From positions 288,001 through 352,000 of the forward strand of contig CAVSHB010000002.1 in NCBI GenBank assembly GCA_963727775.1: a stretch of 64,000 nucleotides of DNA. Reading direction: 5' to 3'. The notes under the pieces are model-generated. The model worked only from the letters and a program-made list of their open reading frames with translations. It had not been told where the DNA came from and ran no database searches. Shown piece by piece: positions 10,046 to 16,595 of the stretch. How positions within the stretch are numbered: position 1 is the first letter of the stretch; every line of letters begins with the position of its first letter. A program made the translations under genes and the position numbers. The stretch comes from an uncultured Nitrospiraceae bacterium (GTDB lineage: Bacteria; Nitrospirota; Thermodesulfovibrionia; Thermodesulfovibrionales; SM23-35).

Positions 10046-10312
10046 TTACCTGAATCGATCTATGAGTTTATGCGTACCGACAAAATAAAGCTTATAAATG
10101 TTGCCTTCCTGCTGGAAAATACACCTATAGAAGTCGTCTACATAAAACTCCCAGAAATCAGAACCTTCAAGCTTGTGTATTTTTAAGGAAGGAAGTTTTG
10201 GATTATCGTTGAGAAGGGATATTTGTTTTTTAAATTTTTTCTTTATACCTTTGGGTAATTCATCGTACTGCGCAAAGAAATCCGGCTCTATGGATATGAG
10301 ATAGTTGCTCAA
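10046..10312 (-). CDS. RelE/ParE-superfamily toxin
   Basis: 88 aa, NP..PSL..HKL.G...WE..V...YR..F....VG.H; overlaps antitoxin stop. Confidence 0.75.
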   Translation of the reverse strand: MSNYLISIEPDFFAQYDELPKGIKKKFKKQISLLNDNPKLPSLKIHKLEGSDFWEFYVDDFYRCIFQQEGNIYKLYFVGTHKLIDRFR

Positions 10313-10584
10313 TCTCTCTTTCCCAGTTCCTTTAGAAGCTCATCAACTTTATATGTCTTAGACCTGCCTTCTCTGAATGTCTTTTCAGCCTTCCTTATCT
10401 TTTCCTGTACCTCCTCAGACCAGAACCACGCCTGTGAGCGGGGAATGTGGATGGAGGGCTCAAGAACGAGCTTTCCTTCCCGTACCTCCAGAATAAGCTG
10501 ATCACCTTCCTTTATGTGAAGTATTTCACACACATCTTTCGGTATGGCTATCTGCCGTTTCGGCGAAACTGTCAGTGTCTTCAT
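10309..10584 (-). CDS. AbrB/MazE/SpoVT-family antitoxin
   Basis: RQIAIPK.V...L.IKEGD.L, C-terminal QAWFWSEE.Q. Confidence 0.85.
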   Translation of the reverse strand: MKTLTVSPKRQIAIPKDVCEILHIKEGDQLILEVREGKLVLEPSIHIPRSQAWFWSEEVQEKIRKAEKTFREGRSKTYKVDELLKELGKRD

Positions 10585-10645: not shown

Positions 10646-10760
10646 GTCAACGCTTATTGAAGTCCGTCAGATTCGGGATCAACTTCTGTAACTAATGACG
10701 TACAAAGAACGATAGATATGCATATTTGAAGTAACCGAAAAATTATTTTACGCCCACTAG

Positions 10761-12463
10761 GAGTCTGTCGGACTTGAATTGCTGTTTTTGACAGCGGTTG
10801 GAATCCGAGAGAGTCGATTGTAGTTATTTTTCATGATTTGATCGTCTGTCATCGGTTCTTTCCTGCCGGTGTTTTGTTGGATACATTATGCCATCGCCAT
10901 TTTCAGGCGCCTACCTGGCTGTTCCTCAATGCATGCAGCCTTTTGATGTTCCATGCAATGCAGATCATATCCCACTCGCCATTGACTGCAGTAAAACCAC
11001 GCAACAGGAATCGGTCAAATCCCATAGCTGCCTTGATTACCCCAAACGCCGGCTCCACAGTACTCTTGCGTATCGCATAAATTGCCTTACCGGCAACTGT
11101 CTTCAACCGATGTTTCATTCTTGTCACTGCATCAGCATCAACCGGCAATGGAGGCGGTTCGACGAATCGCTCCCATAAAGGCTGATTATGACTCTGCCGA
11201 TCTACTGCTATATATGGCTCTATTCCTTTGCTCTCACATTCTTGCACATTTGCTTCGCTGTAATACCCGCTGTCGGCTATTATAGTTTTTACTTTGCCAA
11301 GTTGTTCGGGCAGATATGTAAGCGCTTCAAGCGCTGGTTTCATCTGCTGTTTGTCATTGGATTGTTGTGTTACATGCGTTGCGACAATAAGCATTGTTTC
11401 TGTATCCACGGCTGCTTGAGCATTATAAGCCTGCTTGAATCCTCCACCCGATGCCGGCATTATGCGAGATTCTTCATCGGTCAGATTGACCTGATCTTTG
11501 TCAGTTGGCCCGGCTGCAGGCGGCTTGGGTCCTTTGCCTCGGGGTTTCTTGCCGCTCTGCTTTTGTTTGGCTACACGCTCTGCCTGTTTCTTTTCACTGT
11601 CGGCTTGTTCCATTGCATGCCGCTCTGCCGCACGGCGCTCTATCTCAGCTTTTGCTTCAGCTATCATTTTCAGCCGCTTCTCTCGCCGCTCCAGCTCTTC
11701 CGGGATGTTCATGCCGTCAGGAATGTCAGCTTTGTCAGCAGCCTCAGCTTTCTTCATCAGTTCCGCCACTTCCACTTTCAACTTATTCTCTATTTTGCAT
11801 GCATGCCCGTAGCTCAACGCCTTGTGCTTTGAGGCATTGGCTTTCATTTTGGTCCCATCCAAGCTGACCGTGCCTAACTTCAATACCCCGGTTTCTGCTG
11901 CTATCATTAGTATCTGCACAAACAGTTCTTTCAGCTTAGGCAAAAACCGACGTCGAAAGGTTGCTATTGTGTCATGGTCAGGGTGACTGTTGGCTGCCAC
12001 ATACCGGAATGCTACAGAGTCGTACGTGCTACGCTCTAATTGCCTGCTCGAAAAGACTCCCGTCGCATATCCGTAAAATAATAATGCCACCAGCATCTCA
12101 GGGCTGTATGCCTCACTGCCTCGTCCTGCATAATCATTTTTCAACCGGTCAAGATTAAGCTGATCCACTATCTCTACGACAAATCTCGCCAAGTGACCCT
12201 CGGGCAACCATTCCTGCACCGACGGCGGAAATAAATATATCGTCTCTCTGTCACATTGTTTGAACATTATGCTGATCTCCTGTTGTTCATTCTTATGCCG
12301 CTTGTCTATTATGCCATAAGGAACGCCCATGCAGGTCTGTCGGACTTAGATAATTACAGGCCGAAAAGATTTCTGCTGCCCAGTTTGCAATAAAGGTTCT
12401 TAAGAGACTGCCGTGTCCTTCAAGAAGTAAACTTTTCAGAAATGTTGAAAGTCCGACAGACTC
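10761..12463 (-). mobile_element. IS1182-family insertion sequence
   Basis: TIR GAGTCTGTCGGACT (10761-10774) / AGTCCGACAGACTC (12450-12463); CTAG duplicated on both sides. Confidence 0.9.
10903..12267 (-). CDS. IS1182-family DDE transposase
   Basis: PDHDTIATFRRR, DGTKMKANASK, NLTDEESRIM, ADSGY, RKSTVEPAFG; start set at MFKQ. Confidence 0.92.
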   Translation of the reverse strand: MFKQCDRETIYLFPPSVQEWLPEGHLARFVVEIVDQLNLDRLKNDYAGRGSEAYSPEMLVALLFYGYATGVFSSRQLERSTYDSVAFRYVAANSHPDHDTIATFRRRFLPKLKELFVQILMIAAETGVLKLGTVSLDGTKMKANASKHKALSYGHACKIENKLKVEVAELMKKAEAADKADIPDGMNIPEELERREKRLKMIAEAKAEIERRAAERHAMEQADSEKKQAERVAKQKQSGKKPRGKGPKPPAAGPTDKDQVNLTDEESRIMPASGGGFKQAYNAQAAVDTETMLIVATHVTQQSNDKQQMKPALEALTYLPEQLGKVKTIIADSGYYSEANVQECESKGIEPYIAVDRQSHNQPLWERFVEPPPLPVDADAVTRMKHRLKTVAGKAIYAIRKSTVEPAFGVIKAAMGFDRFLLRGFTAVNGEWDMICIAWNIKRLHALRNSQVGA

Positions 12464-12828
12464 CTAGAAAACAAAAACGTTTCTAACACCTTCTACTGGT
12501 TTATTATTGTCAAGAACTTTTTACGGAGTAACTCCCCTCTGATAGAGACAAGCCACTACTAAGGTTTCCTGGCTTCAATGGTTTCTGCTTCGTTCTTTGC
12601 CCCCAGATCCCTTGTCTCATTACGTAATCCATTCTGCATGTTTGAGAGCCAATTCTGAAAAAGCGGCTTCGTAGAAAGCTATAGGATCGATTATCTCAGC
12701 ATGACCCATATTACGGTATCCCCTGGATTCGGCGTTTCTCTTTTTTATGCCTCCTCTTGGCTCCTTTCACTTAACCTTATATCAACCTTCTCACTTCCAT
12801 CTCCATTAGGAGGAAGTCACTTTAGTCT

Positions 12829-12991
12829 TTGGTGTAGCACCTTGCCTGACACTGGTAATTCGAGGGTCTCAACAGAGCCCTGACCTTGCTTAATCGAGAC
12901 TAAGGTGCAAGCGGGGAGTTACAAGCTCCGCATGAAGGTCGGCTCAGCCGCCTTAGGTATCAGGTCGGTAATCTCCCCGCTTACACGCCAA
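12829..12991 (-). ncRNA. Putative bridge/seek RNA with two internal-loop hairpins
   Basis: Enclosing stem TTGGTGTA/TACACGCCAA; hairpin 12909-12982 (target loop) and 12837-12908 (donor loop), each stem-internal loop-hairpin. Confidence 0.7.
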
Positions 12992-13000
12992 TACTATAAG

Positions 13001-14263
13001 TTATGCAGCCTCCTGGTATTGAAGTGAGACTATAGAGAAATCTTTTTTGTATACACTTTGGTCACGCACAACAGCAAATATGATTCCAAGAAGTTTTCTT
13101 GCTACGGCGATCAGCGCCTTGGTCTTAGGCATGCCCCGCTCAAGGTACTTTTGATATTGATCGTGCATTATTCCACCTCTGCGGACTGTGTTGAGCGAGG
13201 CAAAGTACAAAAGTTTACGCAGCAGGTGACGGCCTCGCTTAGATATGCGTCGCTTCCCCTTGTATTGGCCAGAACTGATCTCATAAAGGTCCAGCCCTGC
13301 GAGCTTTAGGATCTCGGAGAGGGTTTGAAACTTCCGAAAATCACCCACTTCACCGATAAGACCGGCAGTGGTAACCTCTTTAATCCCCTTTATCGAGAGG
13401 ATCGAGCCACTGTAGGGAATCTGCTTCAGATAATACCCCATTTCCTTTTCCAGATCCCCGGTAAAGGACTCAGCAGCGTCCATGGCGATAAGAAGTTCTC
13501 TTATCTCACGTATAATGCTCGTCATGCCTTCGGTTACACCTATAGAAGCTGTTGCAGCCTCATAGAGGGCCTTGGCGCGATCTTCCTTCAGCTTTCCGCG
13601 GCTGACCTTATTGATCGTTGCACTCAAATTATCAAGACCGTACGCGACAATATCCTTGGGTGCTGGGCACTGCGCAAGGAGATATCGGGCAGTCAACGTC
13701 TTTACATCCTTCATTACCTGCAAAAACTCAGGAAAGATAATCGCAAGCAAGCTCTGGAGCTGGTTCACCAGGGATACATAACGCTCGTTGCTCCTTTCCC
13801 TGGCCTGAGTGAGCCTCCTGAGTTTGGCCGCTGGACCTTCCGGGATCACTACAGTCAGGGCGTGGCCAAGTGCCATAATATCAGCGATAACCTTTGGGTC
13901 TTTCTGGTCGGTCTTGTTCGGCGAATTACCCTGAAGCTCCTTAAGCCTCTTAGTGTGCATAGGGCTTACTTGTACCATGTGTACGCCTCTCGCACGCATG
14001 AAATGAACAAGAGGTTCGGCATACGGCCCGGTGGACTCGTATCCAAAAACAATATCTTCGATGTTATGGAGCTTTTTGGCATAAGATACACGATCCCAGA
14101 ACTCTTGGAAACCCCTGCCGTTGTTCCAGAAGGCAAAGGGCTTCACATCGCTTCCGTCCGGACAGCGCCAGTATCCAAAATGTCTATCCTTTCCCATATC
14201 AGCTGTCACAATCATCGTTCTACCATTGACTACTTTAAACTTTTTTGTTTTACTCTTCTTCAT
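13001..14263 (-). CDS. IS110-family recombinase/transposase (DEDD RuvC + Tnp20 domain)
   Basis: ADMGKDRH, GYESTG, KTDQKD, IKGI, LAGL....SSG, ISKRG...LR, A.ARKL. Confidence 0.95.
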   Translation of the reverse strand: MKKSKTKKFKVVNGRTMIVTADMGKDRHFGYWRCPDGSDVKPFAFWNNGRGFQEFWDRVSYAKKLHNIEDIVFGYESTGPYAEPLVHFMRARGVHMVQVSPMHTKRLKELQGNSPNKTDQKDPKVIADIMALGHALTVVIPEGPAAKLRRLTQARERSNERYVSLVNQLQSLLAIIFPEFLQVMKDVKTLTARYLLAQCPAPKDIVAYGLDNLSATINKVSRGKLKEDRAKALYEAATASIGVTEGMTSIIREIRELLIAMDAAESFTGDLEKEMGYYLKQIPYSGSILSIKGIKEVTTAGLIGEVGDFRKFQTLSEILKLAGLDLYEISSGQYKGKRRISKRGRHLLRKLLYFASLNTVRRGGIMHDQYQKYLERGMPKTKALIAVARKLLGIIFAVVRDQSVYKKDFSIVSLQYQEAA

Positions 14264-14504
14264 GGCTATACTCCTTTCTTTGGTTTGGATTTAACCAACT
14301 CGCACATTGGTCTGAATCAAGAAAGAGTATAGCCTTCTTTAACAAGGCCTAACTCTACAACAATATAGCAAGCTCCGCAGCCGAAATGTATTGAAATTAT
14401 TGCTGTATACTGGTACAAATATTGAGATCTTAAAAGAACAGTTTTTATAAAAAGGTTTCAGGTGTTGTTTGTCTTACGGAATTGGGGTAAAGATGAGTAG
14501 CATA

Positions 14505-14552: not shown

Positions 14553-14891
14553 ACGGTTATACTATTTAAAACGACAAAGCTCGAAAGAGAGTGCAATAAT
14601 AAAAATCTTATGTTGAAAAGATTTGGTGCACTGAGATCAAAATTTTTGAAAAGAAGACTAAATGAACTGCAAGCGGCTGCTTCACTTGATGTTTTACGAT
14701 TTCTACCTCAGGCGCGGTCTCACGAACTGAAGGGAAATAGAAAAGGACAGCTCTCTGTCGATCTTGACCATCCGTACCGGTTGATTTTCGAGCCTGCAAA
14801 TAATCCGGTCGCTAAAAAGCCGGACGGTGGACTTGACTAGAATAAAGTAACAAGTGTGAGGATTATTGGCGTGGAGGACACACATGAGTAA
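14553..14891 (+). pseudogene. higB: HigB-like (RelE-superfamily) toxin, inactivated
   Basis: Frame reads (ACG)VILFKTTKLEREC..HELKGNRKGQLSVDL.HPYRLIFEP..DGGLD*NKVTSVRIIGVEDTHE*; ACG at expected start and TAG (14838) at the expected Trp. Confidence 0.75.
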
Positions 14892-15987
14892 AGAAATAAA
14901 AAGTGAATTTGTACCTGATTATGCGGTGCCTCCGGGAGAGACGCTTCTTGAGACGTTGGAGACAATAGGCATGTCCCAGGCCGAGCTTGCAGAACGCACC
15001 GGTAGGCCCAAGAAGACAATTAATGAAATCGTCAAGGGGAAGGCTGCGATTACTCCTGAAACCGCCTTGCAATTGGAAAGGGTACTCGGAGTGCCCGCAA
15101 GCTTTTGGAATAATCTGGAACGTAATTATCAGGAAACCCTTGCGCGCATTAACGAGCAAAAGAGGCTGCAAAAACAAATTAACTGGCTTGAGAAATTTCC
15201 CATTGCTTTATTTGTCAGGAATGGATGGGTTAAGGGTTATAAAGACAAAATTCAGCAACTTAAGGCAGTCCTGAATTTTTTTGGTGTAGCTTCTCCTGGG
15301 CAATGGACACTGAGATGGCTTGACGCTCAGGTTTCATATCGAAAATCAGCAGTATTCACGAGTGATCCTTATGCCGTGGCCCCATGGCTGCGGATAGGAG
15401 AGCTCATTGCTCAAAAGACTGAATGCAGGCCCTATGCTGCGGCCAAGTTCAGAAACGCGCTCTCTGAAATCAGGAAACTTACAACACAGCCTCCCGAGGT
15501 TTTTCAGCCTGAAATCATTCGCCTTTGCGCCGGATGCGGGGTGGCTGTTGTTTTTGTTCCTGAACTTCCGAAAATAAGGGCATGTGGCGCAACATGGTGG
15601 CTGAATCCCAGCAAGGCGGTGATCCAATTGAGCCTGCGCTATAAAAGCGACGACCAGTTGTGGTTCAGCTTTTTCCATGAAGCGGGACATATACTTATCC
15701 ACGGCAAGAAAGATGTTTTTATTGAGGGTAATAATCAAGGCTCTGATAAGGAAGACGAAGCTGATAGATTTGCTTCTGATATTTTGATTCCACCCAGGAA
15801 ATACAGTCAATTTGTGCACTCAGGAAGATGCAGTAAAGAAGCCATCAAGGATTTTGCCTCTGAACTCAGCATTGCTCCAGGCATTGTTGTGGGACGACTT
15901 CAGCATTTCGGTAAAATACCATATAGCCATTGCAATGATCTGAAACGAAGATTTGAGTGGCAGAATGCTGCGGCAAAAATTAGATAA
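14884..15987 (+). CDS. higA: HigA-family HTH antitoxin fused to ImmA/IrrE metallopeptidase domain
   Basis: PPGETL.E.L..MSQAELAER..INEI.KGK..IT.ETA..LE..LG..A.FW.NL, plus FFHEAGH..EDEADRFA. Confidence 0.9.
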   Translation: MSKEIKSEFVPDYAVPPGETLLETLETIGMSQAELAERTGRPKKTINEIVKGKAAITPETALQLERVLGVPASFWNNLERNYQETLARINEQKRLQKQINWLEKFPIALFVRNGWVKGYKDKIQQLKAVLNFFGVASPGQWTLRWLDAQVSYRKSAVFTSDPYAVAPWLRIGELIAQKTECRPYAAAKFRNALSEIRKLTTQPPEVFQPEIIRLCAGCGVAVVFVPELPKIRACGATWWLNPSKAVIQLSLRYKSDDQLWFSFFHEAGHILIHGKKDVFIEGNNQGSDKEDEADRFASDILIPPRKYSQFVHSGRCSKEAIKDFASELSIAPGIVVGRLQHFGKIPYSHCNDLKRRFEWQNAAAKIR

Positions 15988-16203
15988 ATTAACTACTTTA
16001 GGATGGGACATTCCAGCAGGTGCTTTCAGTACCTAAAAGATTGGGTGGAGAAGAAGATACGGCGGTATCTTATGAGGGCTCGAAAACGCGGAGGCTTTGG
16101 CTGGGACAGGTGGAGTAGAGACTGGTTTTACGGGCATCTTGGGCTTTATGCCGATTATAAGGTGAGGTATTACCGCGGACTCGAAAGCGCTGCCAGCGGA
16201 TAG
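15988..16203 (+). pseudogene. C-terminal (domain X/thumb) fragment of a group II intron reverse transcriptase/maturase
   Basis: NYFRMGHSSRCF..WVEKKIRRYLMRAR.R.GFGW.RWS; RT domain absent. Confidence 0.85.
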
Positions 16204-16438
16204 GCATCATAACCCTTGAGGAGAAGCCAATAGGAAAGCGTAGTGCGGGAAATCCGCACGCTGCGTTTGACGTGGCAGGGAATGGAAAAGTGCCATGGCG
16301 AACCTAAACGGGCACGAAACTGGAAACGGTGGATACAGCCAAGGGGAGACCTACTGTAACTCGCCATTCTTTGACCCTACTGATGAGGGGGAGCTGGAGA
16401 TAGAGCTTACATGCCCCTACGCCAGCTCTCTACTCTAC
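16204..16438 (+). mobile_element. Group II intron 3' remnant: DV, DVI and a second DVI from a host intron
   Basis: DV AAAGCGTAGTGCGGGAAATCCGCACGCTGCGTTT 16235-16268; DVI ends CCCTAC 16380; then TGATGAGGGGGAGCTGG..CCAGCTCTCTACTCTAC to 16438. Confidence 0.85.
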
Positions 16439-16595
16439 AGAAGTGAATCAGGGTTGATCTCGCAATCTTCATTTTTCCGTGCATCAGAGAATCCTATTTA
16501 TTCCATATCCCTGCAATTGTTACCAGATAAACTTAAGAAAGGAAAAGCAAAACTGTTGCGGACTACGAGAAAAAATATCAGTAATTCATTTATGT

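Follow-up and report, generated by a model that had tools for sequence, protein, structure and literature searches.

The closest described relatives of the element reported here are IS621 and ISCro4 (IS622), the IS1111 or seekRNA elements (ISEc11, ISPa11 and ISKpn4), and a set of IS110-type elements with a non-coding region downstream of the gene. In IS621, the bases that follow the second guide of a loop act as handshake guides, pairing with the partner DNA after first-strand exchange, and handshake covariation was described at the position next to the core (position 7) (PMC11208158). An insertion bias is on record for the IS621-type system (PMC13626964). For the family as a whole, it is disputed whether excision proceeds by cut-out or by single-strand copy-out (10.64898/2026.08.31.748434; 10.1101/2025.10.25.684509). 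3' bridge RNAs were predicted in 93% of IS1111 elements (PMC11208160), and a 3' bridge RNA is to be expected in the IS110 family; processing of this RNA from a long transcript has been proposed for IS1111 (PMC11187229). Whether the reversed guide order of 3'-RNA elements reflects a different mechanism is a question that the Discussion of the same paper leaves open. Our literature search, with most subscription papers outside its range, returned no description of the clade treated here or of the other-strand equivalence set out below. A survey of 32,190 bridge RNA loci may include the clade (10.64898/2026.10.21.760802), and the left-end motif was not found in the readable supplements of PMC11208160 and PMC11187229.

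The locus lies in a stretch of 64,000 nucleotides from an uncultured Nitrospiraceae bacterium, hereafter the window. With IS621 and ISCro4 (PMC11208160, PMC11208158, PMC13626964, 10.1101/2025.05.14.653916) it has in common the DEDD plus serine catalytic set, the order of target loop then donor loop (both simple internal loops with two guides each), a junction promoter, a core-adjacent handshake nucleotide that pairs with non-cognate DNA, a CT core when read on the other strand, and ATA and TAT flanking the donor core region in this CT frame. It differs from them in that its RNA lies 3' of the gene and theirs 5', and in a recognition frame that runs the other way with respect to gene and promoter: IS621 has a left-end RNA and CT on the gene-sense strand, our element a right-end RNA and AG on the gene-sense strand. 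Its protein is also longer (420 aa against 328, with 17-19% identity in a fold alignment), its 5' target guide of 7-8 nt shifts in register, and its 5' donor guide does not pair with the core. The IS1111 elements described in PMC11187229 share with it a short left end and a long, RNA-bearing right end, an RNA in which the top-strand complement comes ahead of the bottom-strand match, a junction promoter and insertion at a repeated host site. They differ in protein size (330-350 aa) and in their subterminal repeats, which measure 11-13 bp at 7 and 3 nt as against 8 of 9 bp at 7 and 4 nt here; the 7-17 bp range in PMC11208160 would admit the 8-of-9 match. Many IS1111 elements have a multiloop (PMC11208160), whereas the donor guides of our element sit in a simple internal loop. 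To judge by the 420 aa and the short imperfect subterminal repeats of its sequence, the element is not IS1111 proper. It fits among the IS110-type exceptions with a 3' region in section 6 of PMC11187229, which share its size class (395-455 aa), the 3' region and short imperfect subterminal repeats; this comparison is by description, the passages on them giving no RNA structure, guides or activity.

The insertion sequence occupies 12496-14374 on the minus strand and measures 1,879 bp with both AG cores counted (left core 14373-14374, right core 12496-12497, each CT on the + strand). The genome holds four near-identical copies with one or two internal differences, each 1,879 bp from AG to AG; all four end at the same cores, their reading frames are open and their RNA regions identical. 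Of the earlier bounds, 12496..14379, the right-hand coordinates are sound, while 14375-14379 turns out to be the left target flank and thus host DNA, as is the right flank at 12487-12495. The ends are not inverted repeats, ends and target having a short core in common, and the best subterminal inverted match (8 of 9 bp) lies 7 and 4 nt inside the cores. The short left end (14264-14372, 109 bp) carries its donor half-site and an extended -10, and the right donor half-site (12498-12513) includes a -35 hexamer. The right end, at 503 bp against a family median of 233, is the longest among 70 guide sets. It exceeds this median by about 270 bp. Its non-coding spacer (12514-12837) includes a 29-codon frame, and part of it recurs in one relative, L107 (83% over 84 bp). 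A second member of the clade lies in the same genome at C2:272832-276063 (L216); it is 46-48% identical, has its own guides, and is broken, being split by another insertion.

The recombinase gene (13001-14263, minus strand) encodes 420 aa that match PF01548, PF02371 and NF033542 (188.7 bits; cut-off 140). When aligned to IS621 (8wt6), residues E76, D119, D122 and S331 fall on E60, D102, D105 and S241, and D22, assigned from the Pfam start, is invariant in 12 homologues. The protein carries the DEDD RuvC domain and the Tnp domain with catalytic serine by which the IS110 family is recognized. An AlphaFold model is of modest confidence (mean pLDDT 69, below 50 in the C-terminal domain); its ten best PDB matches are IS621 and ISCro4, at 17-19% identity in the fold alignment.

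Behind the stop codon, 181 nt form two modules, each made of stem, internal loop and hairpin (z -3.9, with none of 200 shuffles equally stable), namely a target-binding module at 12907-12984 and a donor-binding module at 12838-12907, both on the minus strand. The first-pass annotation, made from the letters of the window, had proposed this fold, which was reproduced by folding and covaries in relatives: two-sided changes occur at 30 of the 39 pairs. In an alignment of 58 of the 102 cluster representatives, the window included, 97.6% of cells are paired, a percentage that leans towards the structure because the structure was derived from the same alignment; 0 of 500 shuffles reached any of the measures, and in slid controls pairing fell to 36-52%. 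The RNA strand is not decided by folding alone; frequent G-U pairs favour the gene-sense strand. The family sample comprised 75 loci from genomes, the best 80 of 241 from metagenomes and 30 from relatives, and 161 of these 185 were kept (identity at least 43%). The RNA was located in 144 of the 161 by its donor-guide pattern, so that the constancy of the donor guides in this set is by construction; the pattern missed 17, and members missed in this way were recovered with an RNA model. Flanks on either side and the full set of guides were available in 116 of 146 records, giving 111 distinct sites and 72 guide sets. A quick protein tree, built without reference IS1111 proteins, served for description only. 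The RNA model had no match at the loci of homologues that are 23-33% identical, Rfam gave no gathering-level match within the element, and the best homologues in a plasmid collection are about 33% identical. In one relative (L072:2780-2947) the target module is whole and the donor-binding module apparently broken by other DNA.

The two guides of the target loop correspond to the flanks of this very insertion. The 5' target guide (12957-12965, minus strand; equivalent to the LTG of IS621) base-pairs with the right flank together with the core G, and the 3' target guide (12926-12932, minus strand; RTG equivalent) is identical to the left flank plus core. Both matches together (7 of 7 on the left, at least 7 of 9 on the right) were reached by 1 of 200,000 random 16-mers from the genome, which bears out the earlier claim of a guide-flank match. 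The left flanks of the four copies are TGCGG in three and TGTGG in one, and the right flanks TAGAAGGTG in three and TATCAGGTG in one. Three of the four local targets, the window's among them, show the same two mismatches to the guide (positions 3-4 of the right flank, which ends in an unguided conserved G), and TATCAGGTG is the exact complement of the 5' target guide. The target TGCGG-AG-TAKMAGGT deduced in the first-pass annotation holds, the fourth copy supplying the perfect right-hand match that it predicted. With RNA-RNA energies as proxy, the tandem G-A is the most stable of nine double mismatches, by only 0.5 kcal/mol; alternatively, the GA mismatch shared by three targets may derive from an earlier guide variant. 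A trans-acting sister with a guide for the mismatched flank was looked for, and the RNA model found in this genome only the four identical copies and the one paralog with a different guide. No empty perfect target is left in the genome, where one site has a single mismatch and 12 have two.

Across the 72 guide sets, the 3' guide agrees with the left flank at 313 of 360 positions (null mean 150, maximum 184) and the 5' guide with the right flank at 421 of 504 (null mean 266, maximum 297). The left match persists under permutation inside 70% and 80% protein clusters. For the right flank the best of three registers was taken, alike for data and null; an earlier run with one fixed register had given a much weaker signal, and the test was redone because the register of the 5' guide shifts by one base among members (53, 18 and 1 sets). 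Target guides thus track flanks across the relatives, far above the shuffles. The two outcomes that would have refuted the first-pass reading, ends lying elsewhere in other copies and loops that fail to covary with insertion flanks, were both checked and did not occur. Over the 12 scored positions, the 111 sites have no mismatch in 13 cases, one in 42, two in 33 and at least three in 23. The core was AG at 140 of the 140 left ends found (146 records), in a search that admitted only AG or AA, and 13 of the 18 register-shifted sets have A in place of C opposite the core G. Beyond the guided stretch a G follows in 62 of 72 sets; it may pair with an invariant loop C across a bulge, or be read by the protein. 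Of the relatives, several insert one base off the usual guide register, and most (L049-L099, L080-L093, L144-L150 and others) target short tandem-repeat or REP-like intergenic sequence.

On the other strand the core reads CT. In this frame both loops have a 5' guide with the sequence of the left arm and a 3' guide complementary to the right arm plus core, an order that matches that of IS621 (PMC11208160). In the donor loop, the 5' guide (12885-12890, minus strand; LDG equivalent) pairs with bases 1 to 6 of the left end, without pairing to the core, and the 3' guide (12852-12856, minus strand; RDG equivalent) is identical to the end of the right end plus core. All guide and hexamer segments quoted beforehand lie at their minus-strand places, and the match of the donor-loop guides to both sides of the predicted circle junction stands. 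Among relatives, the donor guides follow the rare changes of the ends. Four compensated changes were seen in three distant elements: both donor guides and both ends are changed in L094, and one donor guide together with its end in L097 and in the L216 paralog. The guide is changed without the end in L048, L116 and L005, uncompensated or by wobble only. Invariant AA and ACCAG, with a short gap between them, resemble the discontinuous donor guide of IS621.

The handshake nucleotides were found where the mirror reading places them. Those of the target loop (CU, 12924-12925, minus strand) match the first left-end bases; the first of them agrees with the first donor base in 66 of the 72 sets and with the target base in a single set, which is conservation rather than covariation because that donor base hardly varies. 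In the donor loop (UG, 12850-12851, minus strand) the first nucleotide tracks the first target base: the two agree in 56 of 72 sets, as against a null mean of 35.5 and a null maximum of 46, and agreement with the cognate donor base is seen in one set; permutation within clusters gave p <0.0002 at 70% and 0.009 at 80%. The second handshake position showed no covariation (11 of 72 sets; null 14.9), and pairing with non-cognate DNA is seen at the first position only. Where handshake and target guide disagree, the first target base agrees with the handshake in 14 sets, with the guide in 8 and with neither in 5. The mirror-image correspondence with IS621 suggests that the 5'- and 3'-RNA layouts of the family share one mechanism. 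By analogy with IS621, the chemistry would be the same, with the + strand of the window cut first and a bias towards insertion.

The element is evidently an IS110-family member, and very probably it works as IS621 does, in mirror image. The tolerance of the sites, the two mismatches shared by three local targets, the shifting register of the 5' guide, the uncompensated donor-guide changes, the second handshake position, the narrow split of 14 to 8 to 5 and the E147K of the window copy count against this. Three other readings have to be set against this bridge-recombinase reading. The loop-flank matches could be a coincidence, or the RNA a copy of flanking DNA with the protein choosing the target; donor guides of just 5-6 nt would allow for this, as would the low-complexity repeats that make up many targets of the family and so raise chance matching. 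The probability of this reading is next to nil: the two target matches at 1 in 200,000, a family-wide covariation that beats every shuffle, and the same protein clades bearing different guides with correspondingly different flanks refute it. A second reading would follow the IS1111 seekRNA route, in which a processed, target-loop-only RNA does the targeting, the protein reads the ends through their subterminal repeats, and the donor loop is secondary. The 3' non-coding region and top-strand-complement-first order of the element are indeed the IS1111 pattern (PMC11187229), a target-loop-only RNA is the main species of CazIS110-1 (10.1101/2025.10.25.684509), and the inverted match inside the ends and the missing core pairing of the 5' donor guide would suit it as well. 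We nevertheless hold it to be quite improbable, since donor guides and ends change jointly in three distant elements, the subterminal repeats are shorter than the 11-13 bp of IS1111, and the donor-loop handshake base tracks the target, the donor loop therefore being needed in the synapse.

The remaining reading accepts the family as described and takes the window copy to be crippled, so that only its three siblings, acting in trans, maintain or move it. It turns on residue 147, which is K in the window copy alone and E in the three siblings; among 151 homologues it is E in 134 and K in none, and in the AlphaFold model it stands at the start of a predicted coiled-coil. The same position accepts Q, D, H and others in 17 of the 151 homologues, and the window copy has an open frame, the full catalytic set, and ends and RNA identical to those of its siblings, which makes a crippled copy unlikely, if still to be reckoned with. 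The recombinase had been called intact: this applies to the open frame and all catalytic residues, and is qualified by the private E147K. From its sequence we infer that the enzyme is active and reprogrammable.

Returning to the mirror-image reading, the element would, by analogy with IS621, be copied or cut out as a circle, and the joined ends would form a strong sigma-70 promoter that drives the recombinase and then, 1.3 kb further on, the bridge RNA, which would probably be processed out of the recombinase transcript. One RNA loop would open the target and the other the joined ends. Since CT is what the core reads opposite to the gene strand, the first cleavage, 3' of CT, and the first exchange would fall on this CT-reading strand, the + strand of the window; the nucleotides 3' of the second guide in each loop would then pair with the incoming partner DNA and so favour insertion over excision. 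Directed as it is to the edge of an intergenic module that recurs in the host, the guide would keep insertions out of genes. The predicted junction sigma70 promoter was recovered with its 17-nt spacing between hexamers at 12513-12508 and 14367-14362, on sequence grounds only. Joined ends give a hexamer spacing of 17 nt in 67 of 70 guide sets, where only the spacing and the -10 are independent because the -35 motif was part of the right-end search pattern. With the element in place, the extended -10 of the left end could give low expression. A search for a separate promoter before the RNA gave one weak 9-of-12 site at 13194-13167, at chance level; processing of the RNA from a long transcript is therefore likely. 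No end-to-end circle joint was found in four DNA contig sets, contigs being unable to show its absence.

The edge of a dispersed intergenic module serves as the target; with the left flank as the only query, similar DNA was detected in 25 of 56 family genomes. In the window the module is made up of 14375-14422, its left part, and 12487-12495; it spans about 59 bp and has a sharp edge after AGGTG (loci L220-L256). Similarity begins sharply at 14422 in 27 of the module loci, and AGGTG, which was outside the query, stands at the exact right-flank place in 19 of them and within three bases in 2 more; locus L247 is an uninterrupted homologue of the target site. Since a 16-mer has an expectation of 0.001 in the genome, the three identical targets therefore indicate a repeated site. 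Promoter-like hexamers occur on the + strand at 14391-14396 and 14414-14419, where a promoter scan made no call. The module mostly heads what we take, from the starts of the proteins, to be restriction, helicase, toxin-antitoxin and other accessory genes on the opposite strand, and at this locus it precedes a broken higB and a higA-like gene. A matrix of the module end scored above 16 at 23 genome sites against 4 in a reversed control, 18 of the 23 being outside long frames; it placed the four rebuilt targets in the top ten, which is partly circular for the window's own site. Several module sites stand in same-orientation runs (C2 232-248 kb and C3 558-575 kb). The L216 paralog sits within the CTTCCTG box of a second module type, a promoter module, whose pattern has 29 sites against 3 in the control, and the two module types start alike. 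As candidate roles for the module we consider a cassette site, an attachment site and a shared promoter element. Searched across the order, the target pattern was not enriched overall (29 matches in 28 of 301 genomes, 30 in the reversed control); GA is missing from the two free positions in all 29, of which 10 have TC there and 8 have GC.

Other identities of the site were tried and set aside. An attC-type site is not indicated: the module is not palindromic by inspection, a 271-nt paralogous region folds like its shuffles (z 0.31), and a hairpin is present at the target in only 2 of 4 sites. One paralogous target region had no gathering-level match in Rfam. Another module end, at 16016-16022, was considered as a cassette bound; it lies inside group II intron DNA that is found elsewhere in the genome. 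Nor does the metagenomic clade with CTTCCTG-like targets lie in the L216-type promoter module, an extended -10 being found in 1 of 123 left flanks and that one outside the clade. A repeat of about 230 bp (C1:489768-490005, C1:785694-785916 and C1:345312-345357) ends in a small hairpin with compensatory changes; two of its copies contain this IS110 and one is empty. One copy is shortened by what is presumably an IS91-like element with a tyrosine recombinase gene.

A guide aimed at a recurring intergenic site is also known from IS621 in REP sequences, the IS1111-attC group, IS4321/IS5075 in Tn21 ends and ISPpu10; the site differs here in being an undescribed intergenic module and not a REP, an attC or a known transposon end. 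As a tentative extension, possible rather than probable, the element may be a parasite of an undescribed gene-cassette system of this host group, its guide aimed at a CACCTG-type boundary and that of L216 at a CTTCCTG-type one, in a family whose 3'-RNA members would be IS621 machines in mirror image, exchanging the template strand first and relying in part on a donor-loop base for target choice. If the cassette part of this proposal were true, bridge RNA guides would map recombination sites as IS1111-attC elements map integrons. The kind of system is already known, and that is unchanged by our finding. The clade does offer a direct test of the mechanism, as it predicts the first-cut strand and the positions of the handshake bases, and its approximately 70 natural guide sets supply design rules. 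It is a ready candidate for bridge-recombinase screens: far removed from IS621, it combines a fixed donor with many targets that have been reprogrammed in nature. The target of its guide also draws attention to a repeated, uncharacterised site next to defence and accessory genes.

Next to the right flank, at a distance of 20 bp, an IS1182-family element occupies 10757-12467; the genome has about 12 copies or pieces of it that are nearly identical. A further, internal copy of its terminal repeat lies near 12336-12350, so that a unit of about 130 bp is enclosed at one end of the element. Beyond it, at 10046-10584 on the minus strand, a PF04014 gene is followed by an 88-aa gene without Pfam match, a pair that we take to be toxin-antitoxin-like with an AbrB/MazE-type first gene. 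On the other side, a HigB-like toxin gene (PF05015; 14610-14891, + strand) has an in-frame stop at 14838-14840 and is followed by a HigA/IrrE-like gene at 14866-15987. Directly behind the latter lies a group II intron-like 3' fragment (15989-16446, + strand), of which fuller copies occur at C1:319135 and C1:41692.
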